From the NCBI GenBank assembly GCA_045535375.1, contig JAZSLM010000007.1:15322-79321 (forward strand): 64,000 nucleotides of DNA, written 5' to 3'. The stretch comes from Eubacteriales bacterium (GTDB lineage Bacteria; Bacillota; Clostridia; Oscillospirales; CAG-272). Made by a program: the position numbers and the translations under genes. Positions within the stretch are counted from its first letter, which is position 1, and every line of letters starts with the position of its first letter. The notes under the pieces are model-generated. The model did not search any database, was not told where the DNA came from, and saw nothing but the letters and a program-made list of their open reading frames with translations. Shown piece after piece: positions 30,702 through 58,615 of the stretch.

Positions 30702-30766
30702 AAATTATAATAATCTGTTACCTGCGCGGGAGACTTTTCGTCTTATAGGATGAAGGAGGAATGACG

Positions 30767-31324
30767 ATGGACGACAAAAGAATAATTGAACTCTTTTTTG
30801 CCCGCGACGAGCGCGCCCTTCGCGAGGTAACGAAAAAGTACGGCAAACTTTGCATGCATATTGCCGAAAACTTCCTTTCCAGCCGCGAGGACCGCGAGGA
30901 ATGTCAGAGCGACGTTCTGCTCGAGCTGTGGAATCGCATTCCGCCGGAAGAACCCAACGATCTGCGGGCATACGTCGCCGCGATAATCCGGAGTCGCGCG
31001 ATAGATAAGCTCCGCCGTGATTCCGCGGGAAAGCGCGGCGGAAACGTGCTCATCGTCAGCGACGAACTGATTTCCGACCTCGCTGACGGCACCTCTCTTG
31101 CGGAAGAATACGAATCGACACGCGCGGGCGAGGTCATAAACAAGTTCCTCGACTCGCAACAAAAGTGTGAACGCGCAGTCTTCATCATGCGCTATTACCT
31201 AATGGAGAGCATCAAGGACATCTCCGCCCGCACGGGATTTTCCGAGGGTAAGATCAAGATGATGCTGATGAGAATGCGCCGCAGACTTGAAGAAGATTTA
31301 AGAAAGGAAGGAATACTGCTTTGA
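30767..31324 (+). CDS. ECF-type sigma-70-family factor (module 1)
   Basis: About 185 aa with only region 2 (REDREECQSDVLLELWNRIPPEEP) and region 4 (ERAVFIMRYY...ISARTGFSEGKIKMMLMRMRRRL). The start is MDDKRII, with GAAGGAGG 7 nt upstream; the track start at 30761 is too close to the SD. Confidence 0.8.
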   Translation: MDDKRIIELFFARDERALREVTKKYGKLCMHIAENFLSSREDREECQSDVLLELWNRIPPEEPNDLRAYVAAIIRSRAIDKLRRDSAGKRGGNVLIVSDELISDLADGTSLAEEYESTRAGEVINKFLDSQQKCERAVFIMRYYLMESIKDISARTGFSEGKIKMMLMRMRRRLEEDLRKEGILL

Positions 31325-32556
31325 AAAACAAAAATGAAAAGCTGATGTCGGCTTTCGACCACATCGACTCGCGCTACATAGGCGAGGCGATGGAATATTA
31401 CGGTGAAAAGTCCGCCAAGAAGCCCGTTTTCGCCAAAAGAATTAACCGCTACGTCGCCGTAGCATCGGCAGCCGCCGCGTGCCTTTTGATCATCGCGCTC
31501 GCGCTCCCCTCTTTGCTGATCGAAAGAGGCGCGGACAGCTACACCCCCACCGACGTCCGCGCGGAGGACACTGATACAAAAGTTCAGACCCCGCCCGAGC
31601 ATGACGGCAGTAAAGGACTTCTTTACGAGATCAACGAGGACGGCAAGAGTGCATCCTTCGTTGGCTTCGGTACTTGCACCGAGGAAACTGTCGTGATTGC
31701 AAGCACATATGACGGTCTGCCGGTTACGAGAATGTATAATAAAGGATATTGGGAAGCTGAAACTATTCCTGTCGACCACGATTTCAACAGTAAGTATCTC
31801 AAACGTCTTGTTATTTCGGATACCGTACAGACCGTTGATTTTGAATGTATCCGCCAGTGCCCGAATATCGAAAGCATATATTTTGGCTCAAGAGTGAATC
31901 ATATTGGAGCGCTTTTCTTCGGTCCCGGCTATGGGGAAAACTTTTCCTCGGTAGAGGTTTCTCCCGACAACAAGTATTTTTCCGATAAAGGAAATTGTAT
32001 TGTGGACCTGAGAACGGGGGCTCTCGTCTTGGCAACTCCCACGACCGTTATCCCCAATGACGGAAGTGTTAAGATCATAGGTAATTCGGCTTTTGGCTCC
32101 GCAAGACGGCATCTTACCTCTATCGTCATCCCGGAGGGCGTGAGGATGATCGACCACGGCGCGTTCCGCGAGTGCCAGAAGCTTGAGAACATTGTGCTTC
32201 CAAATAGTCTTGAGATCATTGAATCCTGTGCGTTTGATGGTTGCCACAGCCTTAAGACTCTTGAACTCGGCGTAGGGCTGAAGGTGTATAATCAAGATGT
32301 CTTTTTCACCTGTATCCCAAAAACACAAATAATCTATAAGGGTACCGTGGCGCAGTGGGAGTCGATAGCGAAGAACGATGACTCTCCGGAACTTGTTGAC
32401 GGCACCCCACAAGACCCTATTGTCAGTACGGTATACTGTACCGACGGTGAAACTTACAGCAACGCAGGTAATCTGGAACAGTATAGATGGTGGTTTATGC
32501 CGGAGTACAGCACATATTGGGAGATCCAATATTTAACACCGGCAGAAACCGATTGA
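31321..32556 (+). CDS. Single-pass membrane protein: short cytoplasmic N-domain (putative anti-sigma), TM segment, one extracellular BspA-type LRR cassette (module 1)
   Basis: A TTG start overlaps the sigma stop by 4 nt. The N-terminus MKNKNEKLMSAFDHIDSRYIGEAMEYY is homologous to the other four partners. The TM segment is YVAVASAAAACLLIIALALPSLLI. LRR units follow (IPxxVxxIGxxAFxxC). Confidence 0.75.
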   Translation: MKNKNEKLMSAFDHIDSRYIGEAMEYYGEKSAKKPVFAKRINRYVAVASAAAACLLIIALALPSLLIERGADSYTPTDVRAEDTDTKVQTPPEHDGSKGLLYEINEDGKSASFVGFGTCTEETVVIASTYDGLPVTRMYNKGYWEAETIPVDHDFNSKYLKRLVISDTVQTVDFECIRQCPNIESIYFGSRVNHIGALFFGPGYGENFSSVEVSPDNKYFSDKGNCIVDLRTGALVLATPTTVIPNDGSVKIIGNSAFGSARRHLTSIVIPEGVRMIDHGAFRECQKLENIVLPNSLEIIESCAFDGCHSLKTLELGVGLKVYNQDVFFTCIPKTQIIYKGTVAQWESIAKNDDSPELVDGTPQDPIVSTVYCTDGETYSNAGNLEQYRWWFMPEYSTYWEIQYLTPAETD

Positions 32557-35520: not shown

Positions 35521-37026
35521 TTATTCAAATTTGACTGCGGGGATAAAATCGATCTCTCCCGTTTTGAGGTTGAGGGCGGCAAAGCCGCTGTCGAGGATCC
35601 TTGTCTCGTATTTTGAAGCCTTTCTCAGATAGCCGATGATATGGTCACCCACACGGCGGTAAGGAATAAAGTCGATATTTTCTCCTTCGAAAACAAGGGC
35701 TTGGTTCCCGCCGCGGGCATCGGTGAGGTAGAATTGCATCTCCACCTTGCAATTGAGTTTGATCTCGGTTTCGCTTTTCAGCTTCGAGATCTTGTCGGGG
35801 TCGGTCACGTTCGGATAGTTCTTCGCGATATAGGCGTCGGGGTCCTTTTTGTAGGAGTTATATTCCTCTATACGCGAAGTTGTGGTGAATCCTAGCTCTC
35901 CCGAATCCAGATAAACGTATTGGATACTGCCGAAATCGATCGTTGATACCGAATCTGTCGCAAGATCATAAGCAAGCACGGTGCTGTTTTCGCCGGCACC
36001 GTATGCAATCGTTCCGCAGACAAACAAGGGAACAAAATTGAAGTTCGCCATCTTTCTGTAATTCTCGCCCGAATAGTCGCAGGACCAGATCTCGGAATCA
36101 TAATGTATCTCAACGAACGGATCTTTACTGAAAAAGAAGCGCTTGTTGGTCACGCCGACAAGATACATCTTTGCAGGGATGTCAACCATCTTTTCGGTCG
36201 TGTCTGTCGCGGGATCGTAGCAGACAATATAATCGCGGCGCGTTCCCATGGTGAGTCCTGCGTCCGATACACTCAAATACACCTTTCCGTCCATAGCAAA
36301 AGCGGCTTCGGGAGTCGGGTGGACACTATCGTCCTGGTTCTTTTCCGCAATCACTCTCTTCTCGCCGGTCTTCATGTTGTAAAGGCATACCTTTGTGCTT
36401 CCGGAATCTTCATCGGCAGCTTGAGTGCTCGATATCTGATACATACACCAATAGTCAAAAACGGTGATGGAGTCAATAAGCCACCCTACGGGTATGAAAG
36501 CGGGGCAGCTTTCGTCCGTATGCTTACAGGCAGAGTCGATGCAAAGACTCGTGCTCGTTTTTGCCACGGGATCGTATTTATAAAGATATTCGAAAAATTC
36601 CATCTTTGTTCCCGTGAGGTTTTTGTATGCCGCTGATTTGTGAATCCAACACCCATCATATTCAACGCCGAGGAAGTAGGAGGGATAGGACAAAAATCCC
36701 TCTCCTGCCGTAAAATATTCCTCGGGCAGGTTATTATTTTCGGGCGGTTCGTTCGTTTCAAGAACATTCGATTCGTTCGCGGTGCCCGCGGGATTGAAAA
36801 GCTCGGGGATGAGCCCGACGAGCCTTCCCGCAAGCGGGATCGCCGCGCCGAGAAGCAAGAGGCAGGCGGCAAGCAGCGCGACCTGCTTGATGATCTTTTT
36901 CTTATTTGCGCCGCGCTCATGGACTCCTTCCGCGCGCGGCTTGATCCTTTTTGCGGCGGATTCGATGTATTTGTCATCAATATGATCGATCGCGCCGATC
37001 AATCGCTTGTCGTTTTTGTTTTTCAT
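35521..37026 (-). CDS. Single-pass membrane protein: putative anti-sigma N-domain, TM segment, propeller-like ectodomain (module 2)
   Basis: 501 aa. The N-terminus is MKNKNDKRLIGAIDHIDDKYIESAAKRIKP. The TM segment is VALLAACLLLLGAAIPLAG. The start overlaps the sigma stop by 4 nt. Confidence 0.75.
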   Translation of the reverse strand: MKNKNDKRLIGAIDHIDDKYIESAAKRIKPRAEGVHERGANKKKIIKQVALLAACLLLLGAAIPLAGRLVGLIPELFNPAGTANESNVLETNEPPENNNLPEEYFTAGEGFLSYPSYFLGVEYDGCWIHKSAAYKNLTGTKMEFFEYLYKYDPVAKTSTSLCIDSACKHTDESCPAFIPVGWLIDSITVFDYWCMYQISSTQAADEDSGSTKVCLYNMKTGEKRVIAEKNQDDSVHPTPEAAFAMDGKVYLSVSDAGLTMGTRRDYIVCYDPATDTTEKMVDIPAKMYLVGVTNKRFFFSKDPFVEIHYDSEIWSCDYSGENYRKMANFNFVPLFVCGTIAYGAGENSTVLAYDLATDSVSTIDFGSIQYVYLDSGELGFTTTSRIEEYNSYKKDPDAYIAKNYPNVTDPDKISKLKSETEIKLNCKVEMQFYLTDARGGNQALVFEGENIDFIPYRRVGDHIIGYLRKASKYETRILDSGFAALNLKTGEIDFIPAVKFE

Positions 37027-37580
37027 ACCAAAATACCCTCCTTTTGAAGTTTTTCCGCAAATTTGCGGCGTGTGCGGAAAAGGATCGTTTTCACTTTTCC
37101 CTCGCTGAATCCCATATCGGCGGCGACGTGAGCGACCTTTTCGCCGAAATAGTGGTGCAGGACGAAGACGTCGCGCTCGTGCTCGGGCAGGCTTTCAAGA
37201 AGCTCGTTGAGTATCTCGCCCGCGCGGGCGGTTTCGAACTGCGCGATAAGGTCATAGGTGTCGGGGATCGATGCGACAAATTCCTCGCCGATCTCGGTGA
37301 AGCTCTTGCACCTGCGCCATACGTTTTCCGAGCGCGTTTTCTTCATGGCGAGGTTGCGCACGATCTTTGCAATATAGGCTTTCAGATTCTGCGGTCTTTC
37401 GGGCGGAATGTTGTTCCAGAGCGCCAGAAGAAGATCGTTGAGGCATTCCTCGCGGTCCTCGCGCAAGGAAAGAATATTCGACGCGACCGTGTGGCAAAAG
37501 TTCCCGTACTTCGCCTGCGTTTCCTCAAGCGCCTTTTCATCACGCTCAAAAAGCATTTCGATTATCTTCTCATCTTGCAT
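37023..37580 (-). CDS. ECF-type sigma-70-family factor (module 2)
   Basis: 185 aa from MQDEKIIEMLFERDE, with AGGAGG 8 nt upstream. The track start at 37622 is a GTG inside the conserved leader motif. Confidence 0.8.
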   Translation of the reverse strand: MQDEKIIEMLFERDEKALEETQAKYGNFCHTVASNILSLREDREECLNDLLLALWNNIPPERPQNLKAYIAKIVRNLAMKKTRSENVWRRCKSFTEIGEEFVASIPDTYDLIAQFETARAGEILNELLESLPEHERDVFVLHHYFGEKVAHVAADMGFSEGKVKTILFRTRRKFAEKLQKEGILV

Positions 37581-37730
37581 CAGCTTCGCCTCCTTGTCAG
37601 TTTTTTCAAAGGGTCCCTTCACCTATCAAGTACCACCAAGGTGTATTTGGGTTTCAATCTTTTCGACAATTTTCAAAATTTTGTGGACTTGCACAAAGTG
37701 CCAAGCCTTATTTTGTGCAACTTCACAAAT

Positions 37731-37759
37731 ATAATAGCATATTATTTTTGATTTGTCAA
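37731..37759 (-). promoter_or_regulatory. SigA-type promoter for sigma module 2
   Basis: On the minus strand: TTGACA (37759-37754), 17-nt spacer, TATTAT (37736-37731). Confidence 0.55.
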
Positions 37760-37770
37760 TAAAAAGAACG

Positions 37771-37792
37771 CCCGCAGGCAAAAGCCTGCGGG
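37771..37792 (-). terminator. Terminator of the giant LRR gene
   Basis: cccgcaggc-tttt-gcctgcggg followed by a T-run on the minus strand. Confidence 0.8.
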
Positions 37793-37801
37793 AAAAAGTT
37801 T

Positions 37802-40800
37802 TTAATTCAGCGGATATCTTTCAAAAGGGTACCAGGTCACTTCGGTTGTTGAGATTATACCCGCCATATTGAGATATCGATCAAGCGACGAAAGACTACC
37901 ATGGACGTAATATTTCGCGTTTTCGGTTCCATCGCCTATGACGTGGCAGATATTATTGATCTTACAATCGCCGTCAGAAAATTCGAGCCTTGCATCGCCG
38001 TAGGAAATACCCTCTGCGGTATTGTCGTTCCACTCGAAAGTGCCGTCGATCTTGATATCGTCCATGTTCCTAAACGTAAAAGCATAGCCGTGGACCCTGC
38101 CTTTTTCCTCGTGAAGGACGAGCATATCGCCCACATCGCCGGTCACCACGACCTCTACCTCACCGTCAACATCCATATCTACAACGGTATATTTCACGTC
38201 GTCGCAATAAGCGATCTCTTTTCCGTTATAGGGGAACTCGAACTCATCAAGGAAAATCTCGTTTGAATCAAGAATGAACTTCGATTCGTTATTGAGCACC
38301 ATGCGGTATGCATCGGGAAGATTCGCAAGATCGGCATAACCTGCCATAACGTCTCCATCAGAGCATCGTATAACGGTGAAGGGACAGTTTTCGTTCCAGC
38401 CATCTTGCTTTTCGATAGCAGTCCACTCGGCAAGCGTGCCGGCAAAGTTAAAATCTGTAAGGCTCGTACAATTTTTGAAGCAAGATCCCTTTATTTCGGT
38501 AACGCTTCGCGGAATCGTGATGCTAGCAAGAGAAATGCAATCTGTGAAAGCCGAATAATTTATACTCGTCAAGGTATCGGGAAGTGTCACGCTCTTAAGA
38601 CTTGTGCAACCTTCAAAGATATAATTCAGCAATGTCGTTCCAGAAGGTACAACAACACTTTCAAGACTCGTGCATCCCTTGAAGGCAGATGCGGAAAGCT
38701 TACCCGTTTTCGGAAGATCGATATTCTTCAACGAGGTACAATTTATAAAACCGCCGACCCGTTCCATTTTGGAAGGCAATTCGATATACTCAAGCGACGT
38801 GCATCCACTGAAAGCACTGTTTATCTTCGTCAGACTGTCGGGGATCTTTATCTTTTTAAGGTTGACGCAGTTCTCGAATGCACCGTCATAGATAATGAGC
38901 ACCCCGTCGGGGATCGTTAATTCAGTAATAGCGCTACATCCGGCAAAAGCTCTGTCACCTATTCTTAAAACGCTTCCATCGCTCGGTATAACACTGCCGT
39001 TGCAGCCCATAAAGATCGTTTGGCTTTCTTCATGAATAATACAATTATCAACGCTGTAATATTGAGGGTGATCAGAATCGATCTCCAGCTCTTTAAGATT
39101 ACGGCAGTTTAAAAATGTGTCCGGAAAGAAAGTGGATATTGTAGCAGGAATATAAACTCCCGTGATATTCTGATTATTCTGAAAAGCCGTTCTGTCGATC
39201 GCAGTCACGGGAAGTCCGTTGAAGGAGGAAGCAATAACTAAACGTTTATCGGTACACGTTCCTATACCGACGAGAGTCGCGCTCTTTTTGTCTTCATTGA
39301 TCTTATATTTAAGCCCTGCGCTAACATTGTATTCGGGCTCGGAGTAGAGTTTGACATCGCCGTCAGTGCAGAAGACCTTGGTTGCGGGGATTCCCCGATA
39401 CCATTCCGAATTCCATTCTGCACCCTCTTTTCCGACACGGCTCCACTCAGTCGTGGTTCCACCATATGACACGCTTGCAAGCTTTGTGCAACCGTCGAAC
39501 GATGCAGCGGCAAGAAGCTTAAGTCCGCGCGGGAATCTGACGCTTTTAAGCGAGGCGCAGTTCATAAAAGCATTTTCCTGGATCTGCTCAAGACCCTCGC
39601 CGAGAGTGAGCGTGGAAAGCTTTGCGCAATCGCTGAAGGCGCGCTGCCCTATCCACTTGGCGCTGTCGGGAATGAGGATGCTTTCAAGGCTCTCGCAATT
39701 CGCAAACGCCCAGTCCTGAATATACTCGAGAGTCGAGGGCAGAGTGACCTTTTTGAGGCTCTTGCAAAGGTAAAACGCCTCGTCCCCAATGATGGTCACA
39801 CCCTCGGGGATGGCGATCTCCTTGAGAGAGGAACAGCCGCTGAAGGTATGCGATCCGATTTCCGTAATGCCCGCGGGGATATTGATGCTCGTAAGAGCAG
39901 TGCAGCCGTTAAACGCGTCGGAGCCGAGAGTTTTGAGATTCTCGGGCATAACGACACTCTCGAGCGAGGTGCAGAACGCAAAGGCATCCTCTCCGATATA
40001 CTTAATCGCGTTCGGAATACTAATGCTTCGGATGTTTTTATTGCTTCGGAATACCCCATCCGCAATGGCATACACGGGTACGCCGTTGTAGGTTGCGGAA
40101 ATAACGATATCTTTATCGGTACAGGTGCCGATACCCTCAAGCACCGCATACGAATCGTATTGAACATACAGAAGCCCGCGGCTGCCGTCGTATTCGTAGA
40201 GTTCAAGGTCTCCGTCCGAGCAATGAATAACGGAAAATGCCGCGCCGTCGCTCCACATCTCTGTTTTTTCGATAGCCTTCCATTCCGCCATCGTGCCCTC
40301 ATAGCTAACCTTTGTAAGCGATTTGCACTCAAAAAATGCAAGCGCGCATAAAAGCTTGGTCGTTTTCGGGAACGTCAGCTCCATAAGCTTCGGACAATCC
40401 TCAAATACCGAGCCGCTCAAGGTTTCCAAACTGCTTCCTAAGCTGATGGTTTCGAGAGACTCACATGAGGAAAACGCACCAAATCCGAGATAAGTAAGAC
40501 TATCGGGCAAGTTGACTTTCTTGAGCGACTCACATCCGGCGAACGCATAGGCATCGATCCGTTCAATTCCTTCGGGAATAGTCAGCTCGGTCAGCCAATC
40601 ACAGCCGTGAAAGGAGAATTCGCCTATCACAGTGACGCTTCCGTCCGTGGGAATAACGCTTCCCTTACAACCGTGAACGATGGTTTTTGTTGCCTTTTCG
40701 ATAAGGCAATTTCCTGACGACATATATTTCGGATTGTCTTTGTCAACCTCTATAATTACGAGGTTCGGACAGCCGATCAATGATTCGGGATTTATTCCGG

Positions 40801-42685
40801 TAACATTTTTTGAAAAATAGACGCTGACGAGATCGGGCATATTGTCAATTCCGCCGACAGTCAGAACCGAATCGGATAAAGTCATGCTCGTGACATTGCT
40901 GATTTTTGAAAAGCTGTAATCAACGGAGGTCACCGGCAGACCGTTATAGGTAGAAGCGACGATGATCTCTTTGTCGGTGCAAGTGCCAATACCTACAAGC
41001 ACGGCGTGATCTCCCTCAATTCGGTATTCAAGTCCGCGCGAGCCGTCGTATTCGATGATCAGATTGACGTCACCGTCGGAACAATGGATGACGGTGAAGG
41101 GACAGCCATCGCTCCATTCATTTCCTTTGGCAAGCTTCAACCACTCGTTTACAGTACCGTCAAACGAAAACTTTGTAAGTGATCTGCAATTCTTGAAGGC
41201 ATAATGCGATATGTCTATGCATTTTCCGGAAATAACTATGTTGTTAAGCTTGACACAATCCTCAAAGGCACTTGTATCGATACTGCCTACACCCTTCATA
41301 ACGATGCTTTCAAGAGAAGTGCAACCCTTGAAGGTTTCTACGCCGAGATAATTCATACCGTCGGGCAGAACAATGGTTTTGAGAGAGGTGCAGTTTTTGA
41401 AGGTTTCAGCTTCGCCGAAATTTTTTAAGCCGGAGGGGAGCGTTATTCTTTGGAGAGAACTGCAGTTTGCGAATGCGCGTTCTTCTATAAAGGTAACGCT
41501 CTCGGGGATGATAACACTGACTATCTGCGAATTACCGTTGAAAGCATTGTAGAATATTTCCGTAACGGGTAAACTGTTATAGGTGGAAGCGACAACGATC
41601 TCGGTATCGGTACAGGTTCCGATCCCGAAAAGCGAGGCGGTTTTACCATCGTTGTTTACCTTATACTCAAGCCCTTGCGAGCCGTCGTATTCGGGTTCAT
41701 CGGCATTATAAGGTGAAATTTCAACATCACCGTCGGTGCAGTGGACTACGGTGATCGCGCTCTTTGCATTCCAATCCAAGTCCTTTTGGATCTTGTTCCA
41801 TTCTGTCTTTGTGCCGAGGTAATGGAGCTCGCGCAAGGCGGAACAATCATAAAATGCACCCAAAACGATTCTTTCGACTTCGTTTCCGATAATAACCTTT
41901 TGGAGATTGATGCAATTCGCAAAAAGTCCGGTCTGGATCCATTCGAGCGACTTCGGGAGGGTGATCTCCGTAAGCGCAACACAGTTTTCAAATGCGTCTG
42001 CGCCGATGTAAGAGATGCCATCGTGCAGTTTAACACTTTCAAGCCCCGTGCAGTTCTTGAAGGCGCGCATATCTATCACGGTTACGCTTTCTGGGATCGT
42101 TACGGTCTTGTATTTGACATATTCGGCTAAAGCCGCCTCGCTTATGCGAGTGACGGGTACGCCGTTCCAGACCGATGCGACGATGACGTTTTCATCCGTG
42201 CATATCCCGCGATGGAAGAGCATCGCGCTCTTTCCGTCCTCGTTCATCTTGTATTCAAGACCATAGCTTCCATCGTGCTCGGGTTCGGGCTCAGCCGTCG
42301 TGCCGTCGTAGAGGGGCGCGGTGGTTTCGGGGTCGGTATTGACCGAGGTTTCGGGCGCGGGGACAGTGGTTTCCACGGGCGGGGTCTCGGGGTGGGTCAG
42401 CTCGGGGTCGGTATCGGTGGTCTCGTCGCCGGTGAAGAATGCGACGATGTCGGGAAGATGGTTCGCAAGATAGGTTATTGTGGGTATGGCGGCGACAAGC
42501 AGGGCTATGCAAGCCGCAAGCGCAAGTAACTGCTGCAGGGTCCTTTTGCGGCTGGGTGTGGCAAAATAGACCTGACCCGTCGGGCGGGGCTTGATCTTCT
42601 CGGCGGCTTCCTCGATGAAGCGGACGTCGATGTATTCAAGTGCCTCGATCAGCCTTGCGGTTTTATGGTTCTTTTGCCGTTTCAT
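37802..42685 (-). CDS. Giant (1627 aa) single-pass membrane protein: putative anti-sigma N-domain, TM segment, five BspA-type LRR cassettes, C-terminal DxDxDG-containing domain (module 3)
   Basis: The N-terminus is MKRQKNHKTARLIEALEYIDVRFIEEAAEKIKPRP. The TM segment is LLALAACIALLVAAIPTITYL. Five cassettes are each bounded by YDGSxGLEY...GTCTD...YNGLPVT and ...EWxxIxKxxxW...VIHCSDGDV. Confidence 0.85.
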   Translation of the reverse strand: MKRQKNHKTARLIEALEYIDVRFIEEAAEKIKPRPTGQVYFATPSRKRTLQQLLALAACIALLVAAIPTITYLANHLPDIVAFFTGDETTDTDPELTHPETPPVETTVPAPETSVNTDPETTAPLYDGTTAEPEPEHDGSYGLEYKMNEDGKSAMLFHRGICTDENVIVASVWNGVPVTRISEAALAEYVKYKTVTIPESVTVIDMRAFKNCTGLESVKLHDGISYIGADAFENCVALTEITLPKSLEWIQTGLFANCINLQKVIIGNEVERIVLGAFYDCSALRELHYLGTKTEWNKIQKDLDWNAKSAITVVHCTDGDVEISPYNADEPEYDGSQGLEYKVNNDGKTASLFGIGTCTDTEIVVASTYNSLPVTEIFYNAFNGNSQIVSVIIPESVTFIEERAFANCSSLQRITLPSGLKNFGEAETFKNCTSLKTIVLPDGMNYLGVETFKGCTSLESIVMKGVGSIDTSAFEDCVKLNNIVISGKCIDISHYAFKNCRSLTKFSFDGTVNEWLKLAKGNEWSDGCPFTVIHCSDGDVNLIIEYDGSRGLEYRIEGDHAVLVGIGTCTDKEIIVASTYNGLPVTSVDYSFSKISNVTSMTLSDSVLTVGGIDNMPDLVSVYFSKNVTGINPESLIGCPNLVIIEVDKDNPKYMSSGNCLIEKATKTIVHGCKGSVIPTDGSVTVIGEFSFHGCDWLTELTIPEGIERIDAYAFAGCESLKKVNLPDSLTYLGFGAFSSCESLETISLGSSLETLSGSVFEDCPKLMELTFPKTTKLLCALAFFECKSLTKVSYEGTMAEWKAIEKTEMWSDGAAFSVIHCSDGDLELYEYDGSRGLLYVQYDSYAVLEGIGTCTDKDIVISATYNGVPVYAIADGVFRSNKNIRSISIPNAIKYIGEDAFAFCTSLESVVMPENLKTLGSDAFNGCTALTSINIPAGITEIGSHTFSGCSSLKEIAIPEGVTIIGDEAFYLCKSLKKVTLPSTLEYIQDWAFANCESLESILIPDSAKWIGQRAFSDCAKLSTLTLGEGLEQIQENAFMNCASLKSVRFPRGLKLLAAASFDGCTKLASVSYGGTTTEWSRVGKEGAEWNSEWYRGIPATKVFCTDGDVKLYSEPEYNVSAGLKYKINEDKKSATLVGIGTCTDKRLVIASSFNGLPVTAIDRTAFQNNQNITGVYIPATISTFFPDTFLNCRNLKELEIDSDHPQYYSVDNCIIHEESQTIFMGCNGSVIPSDGSVLRIGDRAFAGCSAITELTIPDGVLIIYDGAFENCVNLKKIKIPDSLTKINSAFSGCTSLEYIELPSKMERVGGFINCTSLKNIDLPKTGKLSASAFKGCTSLESVVVPSGTTLLNYIFEGCTSLKSVTLPDTLTSINYSAFTDCISLASITIPRSVTEIKGSCFKNCTSLTDFNFAGTLAEWTAIEKQDGWNENCPFTVIRCSDGDVMAGYADLANLPDAYRMVLNNESKFILDSNEIFLDEFEFPYNGKEIAYCDDVKYTVVDMDVDGEVEVVVTGDVGDMLVLHEEKGRVHGYAFTFRNMDDIKIDGTFEWNDNTAEGISYGDARLEFSDGDCKINNICHVIGDGTENAKYYVHGSLSSLDRYLNMAGIISTTEVTWYPFERYPLN

Positions 42686-43239
42686 ACGATGATCCCCTCC
42701 TTTCCGAGTCTGTCCGCAAGCCGCTGGCGCGTGCGCATCAAGAGCGACTTAACCTTGCTTACCGAAAAATCCATATCCTCGGCGACTGCACTCACGCTTT
42801 CGCCGAAATAATAGCGGAGGACGAAGACCTGACGCTCGTGTGCGGGGAGCGAGGCGAGGAAATCGTTGATGATCTCGCCCGCGCGGGCAGCCTCAAACTG
42901 CTCGGCGAGGTCGGCGGTGTCGGGAATCGTTTCAAGAAACTCGTCCCCCACCGTCAAAAAGCTTGCGCATCTCTTCCAGGTGCTCATTGCCCTCGTTTTG
43001 TTATAAGCTATGTTGCGAACTATTCTTGAAATGTATGATCTCAGACTTTCGGGTCGCTCGGGCGGGATCGCGTTCCAGAGCGCAAGCAGCACGTCGTTGA
43101 CGCACTCCTCGCGGTCCTCGCGGATAGCAAGGATATTCGCCGCGACCGTGTGGCAAAACGCCGAATATTTCTTCTCGATCTCGCCAAGCGCCGCTTCGTC
43201 GCGCTCAAAAAGCATCTCGATGATTTTTTCGTCAGTCAT
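42682..43239 (-). CDS. ECF-type sigma-70-family factor (module 3)
   Basis: 185 aa, MTDEKIIEMLFERDEAAL..., roughly 60% identical by eye to the module 2 sigma. Confidence 0.85.
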   Translation of the reverse strand: MTDEKIIEMLFERDEAALGEIEKKYSAFCHTVAANILAIREDREECVNDVLLALWNAIPPERPESLRSYISRIVRNIAYNKTRAMSTWKRCASFLTVGDEFLETIPDTADLAEQFEAARAGEIINDFLASLPAHERQVFVLRYYFGESVSAVAEDMDFSVSKVKSLLMRTRQRLADRLGKEGIIV

Positions 43240-43333
43240 AAGTTCGCCTCCTTTCGTAAAGTTCCCTTCACTTTACAAGTAACTAAAAAACGGGGATCGG
43301 TTGCAGGGTTTTGAGAAAAAAGTTGAAAAATTT

Positions 43334-45472
43334 TTATCCGCCGGGGTAGTAAGCGCGGATCGGATAGATCGCGAGGTGTTCGTAAACCGCTTTTTCGCCC
43401 AAGAGAAGCACCTCGCGTGCCTCAAATTCCTCTTTTGTGGCTTTTTCGTTGTCGACAAAGTAAGTCACGCTTCCGTCCTCACCCATCTCTTTTCGCGTTA
43501 TGTCGTGCCAAACGACCTCGACACCGTCGAAGCTGAGCCTTGCGGTGCCGTGCGTTCTGCCCGCGTTTGAGGTGAAATCGACGTTTCCGTTTGTTTTAAG
43601 GTTCAAAAATGATCTGAAATCGAACAAATACCCGTAAACCTTACCCTCAAATTCGCGCAGGACGATCTCGTACTGCAGTGAGGAAAGGATGAGCTCGGGA
43701 TCCAAGTCGCCGTCAAGATCGCAGACGGCATAATTGTAAGAGCCGATTTCCGCGCTCGGATAATCAAGTATGGTGTCCTTGAAGTATCCCTCCGGCTGAA
43801 AACCGAATTTGGGAATGTACGTTGTTTCATTGAGAAGGACCTTGAGGAAGACCTCGGGTATGTCGGGGTAGGTCAGGCGGGGTACGCTGATCTCGCACGT
43901 GTAGCGGTCGATGTAGATCCTGTCCTCGACTGCTTCATCGGGGCGAACGAGAAGATACATTTCATCGGTTGCATAACGGACGAAATAACCGCTTTTTATC
44001 GGTGCCCAATACTGACGTGCGAGCTCGATAGCCGCATCATGGGAGATCGACTCCGCAAGGACTTCGCCGTCCGAGCATTTTGTGGACTCAAAGGCAGCGC
44101 CCTCGTTCCATCTTTCCTGCGTGGCAACCCATTTCCACTCTGCAACGCTTCCCCCAAAGCGAAGTTCCTTGAGCGCAGTGCAGTCCTTGAAGGTATACAT
44201 TCCGATATATTTAAGGCTCGCGGGCAGATCGATGACCTCAAGCGAGGTACAGCCCGCGAAGGTGTGACCGACAAAGCGCTCAAATCCGTCGGGCAGAGTG
44301 ACGGCTTTCAGCATCTCGCACTCGGCAAAAGCCGCGCCGAGTTCTGTCACGCCTGAGGGAATTACGATATTTTCAACTGCGCAACCCTTGAAGGCTTCGC
44401 TGTCGATCAGGGTAAGATTTTTCGAGAGAGTGACGTTTTTCAGATTTTTGCAATCGGAGAACGCACCGTTGTATATCTCTGTGACCGAGTCGGGAATAAC
44501 TATCGAGGTAAGCGCGGTGCATCCCTTAAATGCCGATTGACGGATGGTTTTCAGAGTTGTCGGCAGAGTTACGCTCGCAAGATTCGTGCAACCCTCGAAA
44601 GCCGAGGTGTGAATATCGGTCACGCCCTCGGGAATATTGACCGATTTCAGCAGAAGATTGCCCGCGAAAGCGTGCGCACCGATCGATTTGACGCTTCCGT
44701 CAGCGGGAATTTCAGCCTTTCCGCCGCCGAGGACAAGCTTGCCCGTCGATTTTTCGATCAAACAATTGTTTTTAGCAAAATATTTCTCGTTGCCCTCAGC
44801 AACCTCGATGAACTTAAGCGCGGGGCAATTCATAAATCCGATGCTGAGGCTTCCCGTGACGTTCTCAAGCGACGCGGGGAGAAAGATCTCGCTCAGATAG
44901 GGGCAGTTCAGAAACGCTTCGCTTTCGATATAGGTCACGCCCTCGGGGATCGTCACAGAGGTCATACCCTTGACTTCGAAAAACGCTCTGTCCCATATCT
45001 CGGTGACAGGCAGACCGTTGTATGTTGCGGGAATGATGACCTCGCTGTCTTTGCAGGTGCCGATGCCGACCAAGACGGCGTAGTCTGAAAACTGGCGGAA
45101 TTCGAGACCTTCCGAAGCCTCGGGTTCACCCGATATACCGCAAATAGTACAAGTATTATTGACAAACCTGTGACCGTAAGGGGGCTGGGGTTCGTGCTTG
45201 GTGTAACCACAAAGGTGGCAGTAGGATTCTATATTGTATATTTCGGTACAATTCGGCACGATCTCTCTAGTGATCATATCAGGATGAGTGCATTCCGTTG
45301 TTTCAGACACGGAAGTGCTTCCTTCGGCAGTAGTTTCAGGCGAAGTTGTTACCGTCGGGGATGCGGTAACGGACGGAGGCGCGGTCGTGTCCTCGCCGCC
45401 CTCGCCGCGACAGCCTGTAAATACAAGCGCAAGCGCGAGCAGTATAACTAAGGTGATATTTATTTTTTTCAT
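43334..45472 (-). CDS. Lipoprotein with a Cys-rich zinc-ribbon-like segment, one BspA-type LRR cassette and the same C-terminal domain as the giant protein
   Basis: The start is MKKINITLVILLALALVFTGC at 45472, with AAGGAG 8 nt upstream. The 940-aa track ORF is an antisense extension. The C-terminal 200 aa align with the C-terminus of 37802..42685. Confidence 0.8.
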   Translation of the reverse strand: MKKINITLVILLALALVFTGCRGEGGEDTTAPPSVTASPTVTTSPETTAEGSTSVSETTECTHPDMITREIVPNCTEIYNIESYCHLCGYTKHEPQPPYGHRFVNNTCTICGISGEPEASEGLEFRQFSDYAVLVGIGTCKDSEVIIPATYNGLPVTEIWDRAFFEVKGMTSVTIPEGVTYIESEAFLNCPYLSEIFLPASLENVTGSLSIGFMNCPALKFIEVAEGNEKYFAKNNCLIEKSTGKLVLGGGKAEIPADGSVKSIGAHAFAGNLLLKSVNIPEGVTDIHTSAFEGCTNLASVTLPTTLKTIRQSAFKGCTALTSIVIPDSVTEIYNGAFSDCKNLKNVTLSKNLTLIDSEAFKGCAVENIVIPSGVTELGAAFAECEMLKAVTLPDGFERFVGHTFAGCTSLEVIDLPASLKYIGMYTFKDCTALKELRFGGSVAEWKWVATQERWNEGAAFESTKCSDGEVLAESISHDAAIELARQYWAPIKSGYFVRYATDEMYLLVRPDEAVEDRIYIDRYTCEISVPRLTYPDIPEVFLKVLLNETTYIPKFGFQPEGYFKDTILDYPSAEIGSYNYAVCDLDGDLDPELILSSLQYEIVLREFEGKVYGYLFDFRSFLNLKTNGNVDFTSNAGRTHGTARLSFDGVEVVWHDITRKEMGEDGSVTYFVDNEKATKEEFEAREVLLLGEKAVYEHLAIYPIRAYYPGG

Positions 45473-45589
45473 ATTTTTCTCCTTGAATGTAAGTCGAAAA
45501 AGCATCAGCCTTCTTCTCACTAAAATTATATAATATCCGCGCGCCCTTGTCAATAGTTTTTTACTTGAGGGAAATAAAGGCAGTTTACA

Positions 45590-45618
45590 TTGACAAATCG
45601 GGGTCGGAGTGGTATAAT
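45590..45618 (+). promoter_or_regulatory. Consensus SigA promoter for the FAD oxidoreductase
   Basis: TTGACA (45590-45595), 17-nt spacer, TATAAT (45613-45618). Confidence 0.7.
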
Positions 45619-45652
45619 TATATCGAAAATATCTTTGGAGGACATTATAATA

Positions 45653-47512
45653 ATGAAGAGAATTGCCGAAAGATTTGCAGAAAAAAGCTATGACTTCATC
45701 GTTGTCGGCGGCGGAATGTCGGGAGTTTGTGCCGCTATTGAGGCAGCTCGCTCGGGTGCGAGAACCGCGCTCATCCACGCTCGTCCCGTTCTCGGCGGCA
45801 ATGCATCGAGCGAGATCAGAGTACACATTTCGGGCGCCGATCACGGTATGGAGAAGCCCGACTACGCCGAAAGCGGTCTGCTTTACGAGCTGATGCTCGA
45901 AAATAAGGCGCGGAACGAGCATTTTTCCTACTCGATCTGGGATATGATCCTCTTTGAGGCGGCAAAAAACACCGAAAATCTCACCGTTTACTATAACACC
46001 GTCCTCTACGACTGCGAGACCGAGGGCGACCGCATCACCGCCGCGCTCTGCGTTCAGGAGACGACCGAGATGCGATACCGTCTGACAGCGCCCCTCTTCG
46101 CCGACTGCACGGGCAACGGCACGCTCGGCTACTACGCGGGTGCGGAATACCGCCAAGGAAGCGAATCAAAGGCTGAAACCGGCGAGATCGACGCCCCCGA
46201 GGTAGGAAACAACGAGCGAATGGGCAACACCATCTACTTCCGCGCTCGGAATATGGGGCATCCCGTCAAGTTTACGCCTCCGTCCTTTGCCAAAAAATAC
46301 ACCGAACACGATCTGCGATTCCGCATGCACTGCGCGAACCACAAGGTCGATTACTCGGGCTGCAAGGACCCCGAAAAGAACGAGGCTTGCGGCGGAGTTT
46401 CGGCTCGCGGAGTCGATTACGGCTACTTCTGGATCGAGCTGATGGGCGACAAGGACGACATCATCACCGATTACGAAAACATCCGCGACGAGCTTGTCGC
46501 GTCGCTTTACGGCGTCTGGGATCACATCAAGAACGGCGGCGACCACGGCGCGGAGAATCACGAGCTTGAATGGGTCGGAATGCTCCCCGGCACGCGCGAA
46601 TCGCGCAGGCTTATGGGTGATTATATCCTCGACGAAACCGATATTCTTGAAAACCGTATTTTTGACGATGCAGTCGCCTACGGCGGTTGGTGCGTCGATC
46701 TTCATTGCCCGCACGGTCTGCTCGACACCGACATCATGCCCTCGGGCGACTGCCGCTTCTACGACGGCGTTTACACGATCCCCTACCGCTGTTACTACTC
46801 GAAAAACATTGAAAACCTCTTTATGGCGGGCAGAAATATATCCGCGACCAAGCTCGGAATGTGTTCGACGCGCATTATCGGCTGCTGCGCGATCGGCGGA
46901 CAGGCTGTCGGCGCGGCTGCCGCGCTCTGCACGAAATACTCCTGCGACCCGCGCGGACTCGCTCCCCATATTTCCGAGCTCCAACAGCTTCTTCTCCGCC
47001 GCGACTGCTTTATTCCCGGATTCAAGAATGAAGACGGGCTCGATCTCGCAAGAGATGCAAAATTTACCGCGACCTCGCAGAAAGAAAACTGCGAGCCCGC
47101 GAAAGTCACCGACGGCATCTCTCGCCGACTTGGCGAGGACTCGCACGGCTGGGTCTCCGACGGAATCCGCGAGAGCGGCGAGGTGCTTACGATGTCGTTT
47201 GACTCGGCAAAAGCTCTTTCCGAGATCGCGCTGACCTTTGAGTCGGATTTCAACTACCCCATCCGCGTGACGATGGCGCCGAACCGCCAGGTTCAGCAGC
47301 GCCCCGGCGTCCCTGCCGAGCTTGTCAAGGATTATGATATCGTTTTCAAGAAGGACGGCGAGCGCGTAAAGACTATCGAAATTCGCGATAATCATCAAAG
47401 ACATAACGTACATAAATTTGACTCTACCGAGTGCGATAGCGTCGAGTTCCGCATTTATTCGACCAACGGCGCGAAGGATATTACGATTTTTGAGGTAAGA
47501 GCTTACGAATAA
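45653..47512 (+). CDS. FAD-dependent oxidoreductase (pfam12831-like) with a C-terminal discoidin/F5-8-type-C-like domain
   Basis: The start is MKRIAERF, with GGAGG 9 nt upstream. The dinucleotide-binding motif is DFIVVGGGMSGVCAAIEAARSG. The C-terminal beta-sandwich-like segment ends ...ITIFEVRAYE. Confidence 0.75.
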   Translation: MKRIAERFAEKSYDFIVVGGGMSGVCAAIEAARSGARTALIHARPVLGGNASSEIRVHISGADHGMEKPDYAESGLLYELMLENKARNEHFSYSIWDMILFEAAKNTENLTVYYNTVLYDCETEGDRITAALCVQETTEMRYRLTAPLFADCTGNGTLGYYAGAEYRQGSESKAETGEIDAPEVGNNERMGNTIYFRARNMGHPVKFTPPSFAKKYTEHDLRFRMHCANHKVDYSGCKDPEKNEACGGVSARGVDYGYFWIELMGDKDDIITDYENIRDELVASLYGVWDHIKNGGDHGAENHELEWVGMLPGTRESRRLMGDYILDETDILENRIFDDAVAYGGWCVDLHCPHGLLDTDIMPSGDCRFYDGVYTIPYRCYYSKNIENLFMAGRNISATKLGMCSTRIIGCCAIGGQAVGAAAALCTKYSCDPRGLAPHISELQQLLLRRDCFIPGFKNEDGLDLARDAKFTATSQKENCEPAKVTDGISRRLGEDSHGWVSDGIRESGEVLTMSFDSAKALSEIALTFESDFNYPIRVTMAPNRQVQQRPGVPAELVKDYDIVFKKDGERVKTIEIRDNHQRHNVHKFDSTECDSVEFRIYSTNGAKDITIFEVRAYE

Positions 47513-55734: not shown

Positions 55735-55900
55735 TTTTGTCATCTCCTTTCACTAAACAAGAAGCGTTTTGCCGAGCCCGCGTCACCGATATTTTCAAAT
55801 TTCAGCTTTCTGCATAAATCTTCACGGCGTTTTTTGTGCAATTTGTTGTTCTGATATTATATTATCATATTTTTTTGGAGTTGTCAAGAGGATTTGATTT

Positions 55901-58509: not shown

Positions 58510-58615
58510 TACGCTCTCCTTTCCACGGTTCTTTGTCCCTTCACTTAATAAGTACCCTTTCGACACCCGCGGTCACGCTTTTTTGCGAAAAAAGGAAAGT
58601 ATTTTTTGGAGTGCT

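Follow-up and report, generated by a model that had tools for sequence, protein, structure and literature searches.

Apparent module exchange between a lipoprotein gene and the gene for a giant putative anti-sigma protein at an ECF-type sigma factor locus of ruminant-gut Clostridia

Gene organization of the locus

The locus described here comes from an uncultured Clostridia of the ruminant gut (hindgut) and combines genes for a sigma factor, for a giant membrane sensor with five LRR cassettes and for a neighbouring lipid-anchored relative. Its features are given below, with two further genes that enter the comparison, in coordinates of the whole 64-kb stretch of DNA that was analysed (the window).

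45525..45553 (-): sigma-A-type promoter of the lipoprotein gene, TTGACA-17-TATAAT, 12/12 matches, also present in relatives L002-L005
43334..45472 (-): lipoprotein gene, 712 aa, apparently mosaic relative to related genomes
43240..43333 (-): 94-nt gap from the lipoprotein stop to the sigma 3 start, lacking both a terminator and a sigma-A promoter
43263..43305 (-): ECF-type promoter-like motif, TGCAAC-N17-TTACTT then AAGTGAAGGGA, once in the window
42682..43239 (-): sigma 3, ECF-type, sigma-70 family, 185 aa, regions 2 and 4 (Pfam Sigma70_r2, Sigma70_r4_2; TIGR02937)
37802..42685 (-): giant putative anti-sigma protein, 1627 aa, its start overlapping the sigma 3 stop by 4 nt
42467..42529 (-): predicted single TM helix of the giant protein, aa 53-73, LLALAACIALLVAAIPTITYL, read from the sequence and kept across the paralogous family
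37771..37792 (-): intrinsic terminator-like hairpin, 9 pairs (8 G-C) and a T run, directly 3' of the giant-protein stop, at the end of the unit
31321-32556 (+): anti-sigma partner of sigma 1, carrying a single LRR cassette
56600-57955 (-): anti-sigma partner of sigma 5, carrying a single LRR cassette

Sigma 3 scores 82.4 bits against TIGR02937 (cut-off 42.9). The giant protein consists, from its N-terminus, of a conserved cytoplasmic helix, the TM helix, a Thr/Pro/Glu-rich linker, five LRR_5 cassettes and a C-terminal domain. Pfam and NCBIfam yield no recognised anti-sigma domain in its N-terminus; it is the putative anti-sigma partner of sigma 3 on the basis of gene coupling, topology and family conservation, and we infer that its short, family-conserved cytoplasmic N-terminus holds sigma 3. 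Five ECF-type sigma/membrane-protein pairs lie within the window, each with a 4-nt overlap, and the five membrane partners have in common an N-terminal R-L-L-x-A-L-D-Y-I-D-x-x-Y-I-x-E followed by a TM helix. Furthermore, 79 related sigma loci were found in ruminant-gut Clostridia MAGs. A single genome holds several of them, and in every case a membrane protein with a variable ectodomain is encoded downstream. Orthologues of the anti-sigma protein measure 950, 1457, 1627, 1659, 1740 and 2130 aa.

The lipoprotein begins with a signal peptide and lipobox (LVFTG-C21), continues through a Thr/Pro-rich linker, a Cys-rich stretch, an LRR_5 cassette and a 62-aa middle region, and ends in a C-terminal domain. 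The initial annotation had called it a free version of the ectodomain, which is correct in that no sigma-binding segment is attached, but the lipobox anchors it to the membrane by lipid, and it is thus free only with respect to that segment. The Cys-rich stretch that had been noted before the cassette is present; no family match was found for it, and the N-terminal 117 aa that include it are 60-74% identical in the relatives' lipoproteins. The middle region carries a faint PepSY-like hint, in homologues only.

45122..45295 (-): Cys-rich stretch of the lipoprotein, aa 60-117 (CTHPDM..C..CHLCGY..CTICG), seen in the sequence
43877..44062 (-): lipoprotein middle region, aa 471-532; the segment before the C-terminal domain in the relatives' anti-sigma proteins is 74-76% identical to it
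43337..43876 (-): lipoprotein C-terminal domain, aa 533-712, loop DLDGDLDPE, 71-72% identical to the anti-sigma C-termini of L003, L004, P0006 and P0007
37805..38335 (-): giant-protein C-terminal domain, aa 1451-1627, loop DMDVDGEVE, AlphaFold2 model with pLDDT 96.5

LRR cassettes

Eight bounded LRR cassettes had been proposed, of which the 1627-aa protein would have five and the lipoprotein and the partners of sigma 1 and sigma 5 one each, and this tally is borne out. Regex and cap-HMM scans of every window ORF >=80 aa long recover exactly eight entry and eight exit caps, cassette-like sequence was found in no other window ORF, and Pfam LRR_5 (BspA type) matches all four cassette proteins (E 7.8e-199, 1.6e-60, 6.5e-23 and 9.8e-32). 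The proposed cap anatomy is also real, but the motifs themselves do not fit every copy: the lipoprotein entry cap begins EASEGLEF, not (Y/H)DGSxGL, and the exit variants KVFCTDGD, STKCSDGE and IVCSDGI deviate.

41726-42277 (-): G1, aa 137-320, 97% identical to L003 anti-sigma aa 136-319
41069-41689 (-): G2, aa 333-539, 95% identical to L004 anti-sigma aa 332-538
40208-41050 (-): G3, aa 546-826, at most 47% identical to the relatives' best, with no close counterpart
39356-40192 (-): G4, aa 832-1110, best matches 51-52% identical
38351-39331 (-): G5, aa 1119-1445, best full-length match (46%) the last cassette of the relatives' lipoproteins
44063-45121 (-): lipoprotein cassette, aa 118-470, matching the first cassette of the relatives' upstream lipoprotein at ~80-83% identity
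31600-32451 (+): single cassette of the sigma 1 partner
56612-57583 (-): single cassette of the sigma 5 partner

Pairwise, the cassettes are only 27-38% identical (E 1e-17 to 1e-76) and are thus old duplicates. A segment of ~270 nt in G4 is 73-82% identical to the lipoprotein gene of relatives.

The shared end domain

The C-termini of the giant protein and the lipoprotein had been described as homologous over some 200 aa. BLASTP aligns them at 29% identity over 119 aa (E 6e-12), the full alignment spans ~175 aa, and a profile built without either protein matches the giant C-terminus at E 5e-58 and that of the lipoprotein at E 2e-33; the homology is thus upheld by profile comparison, over ~175 aa. 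The family is large and unannotated, with 2093 representative clusters. Its best 150 matches comprise lipoproteins, anti-sigma-like proteins and four BlaR1/M56 sensors, and 104 of the 150 have lipoprotein-like N-termini; the end domain is a common lipoprotein domain, found mostly on small lipoproteins.

The domain is beta-rich and has one acidic DxDxD loop. An FG-GAP/VCBS-like calcium site had been suggested, and the loop does resemble that of FG-GAP blades (integrin alpha, CRTAC1 9ETN, YesW 2Z8R) in its strand-DxDxDGxxE-strand motif; the family profile matches the loops of CRTAC1 and YesW, and 16 of 32 family members give weak FG-GAP_3 matches. The resemblance does not extend to the whole domain, however: there is one loop per 175-aa domain, with no repeated blades or internal duplication detectable, whole-domain structure comparison of the confident predicted fold found no PDB neighbour, and FG-GAP models match no window protein at E <=0.01.

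Within the window, only the giant protein and the lipoprotein carry this domain. Such confinement would fit a functional partnership, in which the lipoprotein acts as decoy, co-receptor or competitor for the same ligand or sensor via the end domain and is co-expressed from one operon, and so would the occurrence of the domain on BlaR1/M56 sensor-transducers, which is consistent with a sensing or interaction role. We regard this explanation as distinctly unlikely. With end domains 26-29% and cassettes about 33-37% identical, a shared ligand is not implied, and the two ectodomains are, as judged from these identities, probably not versions of the same binding surface.

Promoters and the intergenic gap

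Promoters and terminators are treated here as consensus matches. The promoter at 45525..45553 is the only one of sigma-A type in the window for the lipoprotein, sigma 3 and anti-sigma genes, and read-through into sigma 3 is thus plausible. As the initial annotation had stated, there is no terminator between the first two genes: no terminator-like site was found in 43240-43333, where the RNA fold is less stable than that of shuffled sequence (z = +1.9), and the only terminator of the gene string follows the giant gene. At the microhomology GAT(A/C)AAA, the lipoprotein stop codon directly adjoins the conserved 5' leader of the sigma gene. Most of the ~60 paralogous sigma genes compared have the ECF-type motif of the gap conserved upstream of them, in -35 and -10 versions that differ by clade; sigma 3 probably has its own start site too. 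No other sigma 3-type promoter was found in the 64 kb.

The single transcription unit that had been proposed is thereby plausible for the window itself, but as a derived arrangement. In all four relatives (L002-L005) a sigma-A promoter stands between lipoprotein and sigma, and at least three of them also have a hairpin ahead of it; the window has lost both, together with the gap sequence upstream of that promoter. Co-transcription of lipoprotein and sigma 3 would thus be plausible but derived, and only one assembly shows it. The terminator-free gap speaks for a functional partnership, but relatives transcribe the lipoprotein separately, and its promoter has the housekeeping-type consensus, not the sigma 3-type motif.

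Synteny and mosaic structure

The four related MAGs retain the same gene order: FAD-oxidoreductase (-), then lipoprotein, sigma and anti-sigma. At the DNA level, window 45700..44060 matches the 5' part of the relatives' lipoprotein gene, 44077..43333 matches the 3' end of their anti-sigma gene, and 43335..41024 matches their leader, sigma gene and the 5' part of the anti-sigma gene.

44060..44077 (-): crossover zone in the cassette exit cap (..CSDGE/VLAE..), where DNA homology switches from lipoprotein-gene type to anti-sigma-3'-end type

The transferred module is 72% identical, compared with 95% for the flanking sigma, and the donor was thus not an L003/L004-like copy. Compared as proteins, G1 and G2 show 95-97% identity to the relatives' sequences, while G3-G5 and the giant end domain reach at most 58%. 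On these alignments, the lipoprotein appears to be a mosaic with a lipoprotein-type 5' part and a 3' part like the relatives' anti-sigma genes, and both genes appear to be recombination mosaics between which modules have been swapped.

The mosaic lipoprotein and the giant protein each form a singleton cluster known from a single contig of 81,336 nt, and the junctions are therefore without independent confirmation. It could be that metagenome assembly created both the lipoprotein-sigma junction and the mosaic gene, with strains or paralogous cassettes joined into a chimeric contig, as might happen in a repeat-rich locus whose relatives are all MAGs. This is highly improbable. Positions 37700-45700 contain no long exact repeats (repeat families are 60-87% identical and <=55 nt), the sequence shared at the junctions, 18 nt and ~7 nt, is too short for k-mer joins, and reading frames are intact across both. 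All mosaic parts are, moreover, 12-23% diverged from every relative, and are thus not copies of another sampled strain.

The two proteins might also be functionally uncoupled, independent surface proteins made adjacent by local duplication, with module exchange a by-product of similarity and read-through an accident of deletion. The pairing is limited to one orthologous locus, L006 (sigma 90% identical to sigma 3) lacks the upstream lipoprotein, and the separate promoters in relatives and the mostly stand-alone lipoprotein nature of the end domain point the same way. We nevertheless find such independence rather unlikely, since synteny survives divergence of the anti-sigma N-terminus to 57-60% identity in L005, and since in L003 and L004 the anti-sigma gene is followed by one more lipoprotein gene, which encodes the same signal peptide; this suggests that the association is maintained. 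Adjacency kept in five genomes and the movement of modules between the two genes also favour a functional partnership; against it, the other end-domain-bearing anti-sigma paralogues (L007, L016, L021 and L022) have no such lipoprotein neighbour.

Comparison with known systems

First of all, in classical Bacillota ECF pairs such as B. subtilis SigW-RsiW and SigV-RsiV, a sigma with regions 2 and 4 only is co-transcribed with a translationally coupled membrane partner, and an AAC-type -35 motif lies upstream of the sigma gene. Sigma 3 shares the two-region architecture, the coupled partner and the -35 motif. It differs in that the cytoplasmic segment of the giant protein is ~50 aa and matches no known anti-sigma domain, the anti-sigma ectodomain is huge and modular, and most paralogues have a strong sigma-A-type promoter upstream of the ECF-type motif.

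Second, Clostridium thermocellum SigI/RsgI and sigma24C/Rsi24C are polysaccharide-sensing sigma/anti-sigma pairs (PMC3990059). The present family resembles them in having multiple paralogous sigma/membrane anti-sigma pairs per Clostridia genome, a different extracellular sensing module on each anti-sigma, sigma genes that appear autoregulated, and a plant-fibre or gut habitat. Unlike SigI/RsgI, sigma 3 fits the generic ECF model and no RsgI_N domain was found in the window partner; in place of CBM, PA14 or GH modules there are BspA-type LRR arrays and an unannotated domain, in ectodomains that are cassette-shuffled and up to 2130 aa long.

Third, the cassettes have the same 23-residue repeat core as BspA/TpLRR/LRR_5 proteins (PDB 4FS7, 4GT6, 4H09, 6MLX TpLRR, 4CP6 PcpA), with matches at E 7.7e-46 to 4.6e-18 that cover the core only and leave the caps uncovered; NCBIfam HupY/LrrG models match partially, far below cut-off. 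Unlike in those proteins, capped cassettes here stand in tandem on a sigma-linked TM protein, with one more on a lipoprotein. Finally, the end domain lies in the extracellular part of the four M56 proteins of BlaR1/MecR1 type among its best 150 matches, and thus recurs on membrane signal transducers; the window proteins differ in lacking an M56 domain, and their transducing part would be the putative sigma-binding N-terminus.

A model for the locus

The explanation that we prefer, and that taken as a whole we judge moderately probable, is that the membrane-proximal parts of both genes are orthologous to those of relatives, while distal modules have been replaced or exchanged between lipoprotein and anti-sigma genes, with the exchange crossover in the conserved cassette cap. 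One recombination event would have given the window lipoprotein its anti-sigma-type distal module, and the hairpin/promoter region found upstream of sigma in relatives would have been lost from the intergenic gap in the same event or in a separate one. Sigma 3 and its partner would then most likely be expressed by read-through from the lipoprotein sigma-A promoter and from the retained, autoregulated ECF-type promoter, with sigma 3 translationally coupled to the 1627-aa membrane protein. An extracellular ligand, surface or partner may engage the LRR and end-domain ectodomain, upon which the anti-sigma would be inactivated, probably by regulated proteolysis, and released sigma 3 would transcribe from TGCAAC-N17-TTACTT promoters, its own included. 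The lipoprotein would be a surface-displayed relative built from the same module set, namely a single LRR domain, then a linker and an end domain of the same kind, and the locus would be one member of a heavily expanded family of ECF-type sigma/single-pass anti-sigma pairs in uncultured ruminant-hindgut Clostridia.

Sigma 3 and the sigma/membrane-partner pairs

The locus comprises a sigma gene, the gene of a putative anti-sigma partner and a lipoprotein gene, and the window holds four other ECF-type sigma/membrane-partner pairs:

42682-43239 (-): sigma 3 ORF, 185 aa
37802-42685 (-): giant protein ORF, 1627 aa
43334-45472 (-): lipoprotein ORF, 712 aa, N-terminus MKKINITLVILLALALVFTGC
30761-32556 (+): sigma/membrane-partner pair
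35521-37622 (-): sigma/membrane-partner pair
52649-55743 (-): sigma/membrane-partner pair
56600-58566 (-): sigma/membrane-partner pair

Sigma 3 contains regions 2 and 4 (Pfam Sigma70_r2, E 7.1e-8; Sigma70_r4_2, E 5.4e-13), lacks regions 1 and 3, as is characteristic of ECF (group 4) members of the sigma-70 family, and scores 82.4 bits against the ECF model TIGR02937 (cut-off 42.9). There are five sigma genes in the window, with 49-65% identity to sigma 3, and each overlaps the downstream gene of a single-pass membrane protein by 4 nt (ATGA; five of five pairs). The partners share an N-terminal segment, R-L-L-x-A-L-D-Y-I-D-x-x-Y-I-x-E, followed by about 25 variable residues and the helix ALAACLLLL..P; in the giant protein the single hydrophobic helix occupies aa 53-73, behind this segment. 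The 4-nt overlap, the single membrane passage and the cytoplasmic N-terminus are the coupling and topology of a membrane anti-sigma factor. From coupling, topology and conservation we infer that the window partners are putative anti-sigma factors. No recognised anti-sigma domain (ASD/zf-HC2, RskA, RsgI_N and others) was detected in the N-terminus with Pfam or NCBIfam at E up to 10. A word-indexed homologue search with this N-terminus returned short fragments only.

The ectodomains of the partners differ. LRR_5 arrays are present in three of the five window pairs, and the 501-aa and 843-aa partners, which have non-LRR ectodomains, gave no NCBIfam match and, for the 843-aa protein, no Pfam match either. 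A genome scan with sigma 3 found 79 loci, at which the downstream partners range from 193 to 2130 aa. The closest relatives are from the hindgut of goat, yak and cattle, in MAGs of uncultured Clostridia/Eubacteriales with several loci per genome. At 39-44% identity, remoter matches fall in Ruminiclostridium, Ruminococcus flavefaciens and other Bacillota MAGs. The neighbouring genes (P-type ATPase, FAD oxidoreductase, Fe-ADH, HTH regulator and GntR regulator) gave no functional hint, and an exact-sequence contig look-up returned no record for the lipoprotein or sigma 3.

Among the modes of bacterial signal transduction, ECF sigma/anti-sigma pairs rank as the third major one, and the inputs of most of them are, to our knowledge, unknown. 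The window locus is a variant of this known kind of sensor. Its closest functional counterparts are found in C. thermocellum, which has several SigI/RsgI and sigma24C/Rsi24C pairs whose anti-sigma ectodomains sense polysaccharides (PMC3990059). Membership of the SigI/RsgI class itself was considered and rejected. First of all, the anti-sigma factor of that class carries an RsgI N-terminal domain, whereas the giant protein has none, since Pfam gave no N-terminal match on it. Second, generic ECF models fit the sigma factor best, and third, the sensors are built of LRR_5. Our literature search found no description of LRR or BspA anti-sigma factors.

Capped LRR cassettes

Pfam assigns LRR_5 (PF13306, BspA-type) to the giant protein (E 7.8e-199), the lipoprotein (E 1.6e-60) and the window proteins at 31321 and 56600, and the scores in these four proteins (650, 203, 81.5 and 110 bits) lie above the gathering cut-off of 27.7. 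Together with the 23-residue repeat, which can be read directly (e.g. LESVKLHDGISYIGADAFENCVA / LTEITLPKSLEWIQTGLFANCIN), this identifies BspA-type LRRs, with PDB relatives including 4FS7 and 6MLX. The initial annotation had counted eight capped cassettes, and regular expressions and small cap HMMs applied to all window ORFs recover the same number: eight entry caps and eight exit caps, five cassettes (G1-G5) in the giant protein and one in each of three others. No cassette-like sequence was found in the remaining window ORFs. The cassettes are 184-353 aa long and only 27-38% identical in pairs, which rules out recent duplicates; they are therefore old copies.

The lipoprotein and the shared end domain

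The signal peptide of the lipoprotein ends in MKKINITLVILLALALVFTG-C21, a lipobox with an invariant Cys that is kept in relatives and conforms to what we take to be the lipobox pattern, [LIVMF..]2-[..T..]-[AGS]-C. Signal peptide and lipobox together identify a bacterial lipoprotein, with predicted lipidation. A Pfam scan of its Cys-rich stretch and middle region gave nothing above threshold. PepSY (PF03413) was considered for the middle region and rejected: the window sequence has no match, and the score of one homologue (E 0.028, 15.2 bits) falls below the gathering cut-off of 24.

The proposed homology between the C-termini of the lipoprotein and the giant protein is borne out. BLASTP aligns them with 29% identity over 119 aa (E 6e-12), and a three-way alignment with the first-found close homologue carries the similarity to the last residues. 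An independent profile of 29 homologues, which omitted both window proteins and P0004, a close homologue of the giant protein, matches both C-termini end to end (E 4.7e-58 and 1.8e-33, with the database size set nominally to a million sequences). The refuting outcome named in the initial annotation, a profile comparison without significance, is thus not seen, and the homology is real. Among all window ORFs, only these two carry the end domain.

No Pfam family covers this domain. Of the homologue searches only one was informative, a HMMER scan run exhaustively over 1.84 billion cluster representatives, which gave 2093 proteins at E <=0.001 and 710 at <=1e-10; word-indexed searches gave one match with a single sequence and three with a 32-sequence profile. 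Among the best 150 of the 2093 matches, 104 have lipoprotein-like N-termini, eight have an anti-sigma-like N-terminus and four are BlaR1-type M56 sensor-transducers in which the end domain is extracellular. Domains that co-occur in the family include LRR_5 and, in lipoproteins, PepSY and the lysozyme-inhibitor families PliI and LprI; two full-length members have genuine PepSY matches. The source of these associations is:

P0009, P0012, P0096, P0109 and members of alignment A3: end-domain proteins with BlaR1/M56, PliI, LprI or PepSY

Such company hints at a role of the end domain in sensing cell-wall-active agents.

Half of 32 end-domain members give weak FG-GAP_3 matches, limited to the stretch yavvDmDgDgkvEvv. 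In the PDB, the end-domain profile reaches nothing beyond the FG-GAP loops of CRTAC1 and YesW, and FG-GAP models gave no match to the window proteins at E <=0.01. The acidic residues of the loop, D56, D60 and E64 (numbering of the aligned giant-protein segment), are near-invariant, and the loop is reasonably regarded as an FG-GAP-like candidate calcium site. AlphaFold2 modelled the end domain with pLDDT 96.5 and pTM 0.91 from a 32-sequence alignment (a three-sequence alignment gave a pLDDT of only 40.7) and predicts about eleven strands, with a helix at either terminus. Foldseek found nothing at E <=0.001 in PDB or BFVD; PDB matches reach E 0.07 at best, with TM <=0.30, and are mostly to part of a propeller. 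Internal duplication was undetected (hhalign of half against half, probability 2%). A true FG-GAP/VCBS propeller is thus rejected, given a single motif, no repeats and no structural match, and we take the end domain to be a Bacillota module for extracytoplasmic sensing or interaction that lacks annotation.

Mosaic structure of the locus

Four related loci in other MAGs, L002-L005, have sigma 3 orthologues with 90-95% identity and the gene order FAD-oxidoreductase (-), lipoprotein, sigma, anti-sigma. Their lipoproteins match that of the window in promoter, signal peptide and, at about 80% identity, first cassette; the Cys-rich region is also present in L003-L005. With 993-1437 aa these lipoproteins are longer, carry between two and four cassettes and have another type of end domain. 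The anti-sigma orthologues vary in length as well (950, 1457, 1627, 1659, 1740 and 2130 aa). DNA comparison divides the window locus into three segments:

45700..44060: matches the lipoprotein 5' part of L002-L004, 79-87%
44077..43333: matches the anti-sigma gene 3' end of L003 and L004, 77-78%
43335..41024: matches the leader, sigma and anti-sigma 5' part of L002-L004, 88-91%

In its DNA, then, the window locus is a mosaic. At the protein level, the middle region and end domain of the lipoprotein are 71-76% identical to the anti-sigma C-terminus of L003, L004, P0006 and P0007, versus only about 34% to the end domains of the relatives' lipoproteins. P0006 joins, in one anti-sigma protein, a part like aa 1-514 of the giant protein (52%) to a part like aa 110-712 of the lipoprotein (58%); it sits on a 3.6-kb contig without useful context. 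The giant protein itself is orthologous in its N-terminus, in G1 (97% to L003) and in G2 (95% to L004), while G3-G5 and its end domain have counterparts of <=58% identity, and G5, over its full length, is matched best by the cassette that comes last in the relatives' lipoproteins. These matches indicate that distal modules have been replaced, and exchanged between sigma-tethered and lipid-anchored genes. One crossover falls in a cassette exit cap, between CSDGE and VLAE (44060-44077), and at the G2-exit/G3-entry boundary (41117..40929) the identity to the best-matching cassette boundary in L003-L005 is 87-94%, with cassette cores beside it that are not conserved. The cassette caps are thus likely recombination joints. 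A recent copy from an L003-like genome is not the source, because the transferred module has diverged further than the sigma gene beside it.

A chimeric assembly could give the same picture, and each of the two proteins forms a singleton cluster, found on one 81-kb NCBI contig, so that the junctions are known only from that contig. The locus has no long exact repeats, however, the junction overlaps are only 18 nt and about 7 nt, and the reading frames are unbroken across them, which makes a chimera unlikely.

Transcription signals

The predicted signals that flank the three genes are:

45553..45525 (-): perfect sigma-A promoter upstream of the lipoprotein gene
37792..37771 (-): strong terminator behind the giant gene

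As the initial annotation had stated for the terminator, the 94-nt gap between the lipoprotein gene and sigma 3 contains neither a terminator nor a sigma-A promoter that we could find, and its RNA structure is weaker than in shuffled sequence. With this layout, lipoprotein, sigma 3 and anti-sigma could in this genome be transcribed together, as one predicted unit, from the promoter of the lipoprotein gene. A TTGACAA..TG(A/C)TA(A/T)(A/T)AT promoter of its own precedes each of sigma 1, sigma 2 and sigma 4 in the window, and likewise the sigma 3 orthologues (L004 at 9866-9894, L005 at 8009-8037); before the orthologues' sigma promoter lies a hairpin in L002, L004 and L005 and a long inverted repeat in L003. 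In the alignment the window gap is without the relatives' promoter and hairpin, and the lipoprotein stop codon adjoins the conserved sigma leader at GAT(A/C)AAA. The promoter-less state is derived, since L005, which stands furthest from the window among the four relatives with a lipoprotein, has the promoter. Rfam gave no match at E <=1 across 36500-46500.

Downstream of the sigma-A-type promoters, most of about 60 paralogues compared share the motif TTTCAAAA-nn-TGnAAC(C)-N16-17-(G)TnCTT or GTCTA, then TAAGTGAAGGGAC, in which the -35 and -10 variants follow the sigma clades. The motif is retained in the window gap (43305..43263) and absent elsewhere in the window. It looks like a putative ECF-type autoregulated promoter, which would give a second, inducible transcription start inside the 94-nt gap. 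No regulon can be named, as no other sigma 3-type promoter was found within the window.

Several further features of these regions were observed. Perfect TTGACA-17-TATAAT promoters stand back to back, at 45525-45553 (-) towards the lipoprotein gene and at 45590-45618 (+) towards a divergent FAD-dependent oxidoreductase gene (45656-47512), also in L004 and L005. A 28-nt palindrome, GCACAAA-N14-TTTGTGC, occurs at 37691-37718 (chance expectation in the window 0.01) and in 29 of 80 fetched loci, e.g. L017 (9884-9911) and L049 (9889-9916), where the sigma gene starts at 10001. Many paralogous sigma genes have it about 90-130 nt upstream, with the sigma-A-type promoter on one side of it and the ECF-type motif on the other; the sigma 3 clade is without it. 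It may serve as a repressor operator or form an RNA hairpin. In L003 the lipoprotein-sigma gap (9485-10001) holds a long, near-perfect inverted repeat (GCTGTCATCCTGAGCGGAGCGAAGCGGAGTCGAAGGACCTCG and its reverse complement) that looks like a small MITE-like insertion. On the strand of sigma 5, a GntR/HutC-family regulator gene (58616-59341, -) stops about 50 nt before it, and sigma 5, too, may be read through from an upstream gene.

The lipoprotein as a possible partner of the sensor

The initial annotation had taken the lipoprotein and the giant protein as free and sigma-tethered versions from one transcription unit, in a decoy or co-receptor arrangement. This interpretation is partly supported, in that the shared domain and the terminator-free gap stand; that the lipoprotein might be a decoy or co-receptor of the giant sensor stays hypothetical. 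A link between the two is favoured by synteny across five genomes and by a second lipoprotein with the same signal peptide behind the anti-sigma gene in L003 and L004. The relatives' separate promoters, the low identity between the shared domains and the housekeeping type of the lipoprotein promoter weigh against a specific decoy or co-receptor role; moreover, the related locus L006 has no lipoprotein, and four other anti-sigma paralogues have the end domain without such a neighbour. The second lipoproteins are large LRR proteins (L003 15106-19644, L004 17123-20557), each with its own promoter and with a signal peptide 83-89% identical over 54 aa to that of the upstream lipoprotein; in the window, sigma 2 occupies their position.

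A fuller scheme can be drawn, which we consider distinctly improbable as a whole: a pool of modules shuffled at the caps, with a new, Ca2+-dependent, blade-like end domain. In this scheme, recombination at cap-coding boundaries would move modules between the sigma-tethered sensor and lipid-anchored paralogues, and the lipoprotein would associate with the sensor via the end domain and tune signalling as co-receptor or decoy. If true, cassette shuffling would diversify the input specificity of a transcriptional switch.

Significance

The locus alone opens no long-standing question. Three features deserve note: a sensor made of capped LRR cassettes, an end-domain family that is large and unannotated, and modules exchanged with the lipoprotein next to it. 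For the last of these, the locus is a clear natural case, between a signalling receptor and a lipoprotein. The end domain is widespread, with more than 2000 representative clusters. It is missing from Pfam, its fold is predicted with confidence and has no neighbour among solved structures, and its presence on lipoproteins, anti-sigma-like proteins and BlaR1-type sensors makes it a reasonable structural and ligand target. The BspA-type LRR fold is otherwise associated with adhesion to host and microbial surfaces. Here it forms the sensors of a large, previously undescribed expansion in ruminant-gut Clostridia, which suggests that these bacteria couple surface recognition directly to transcription.
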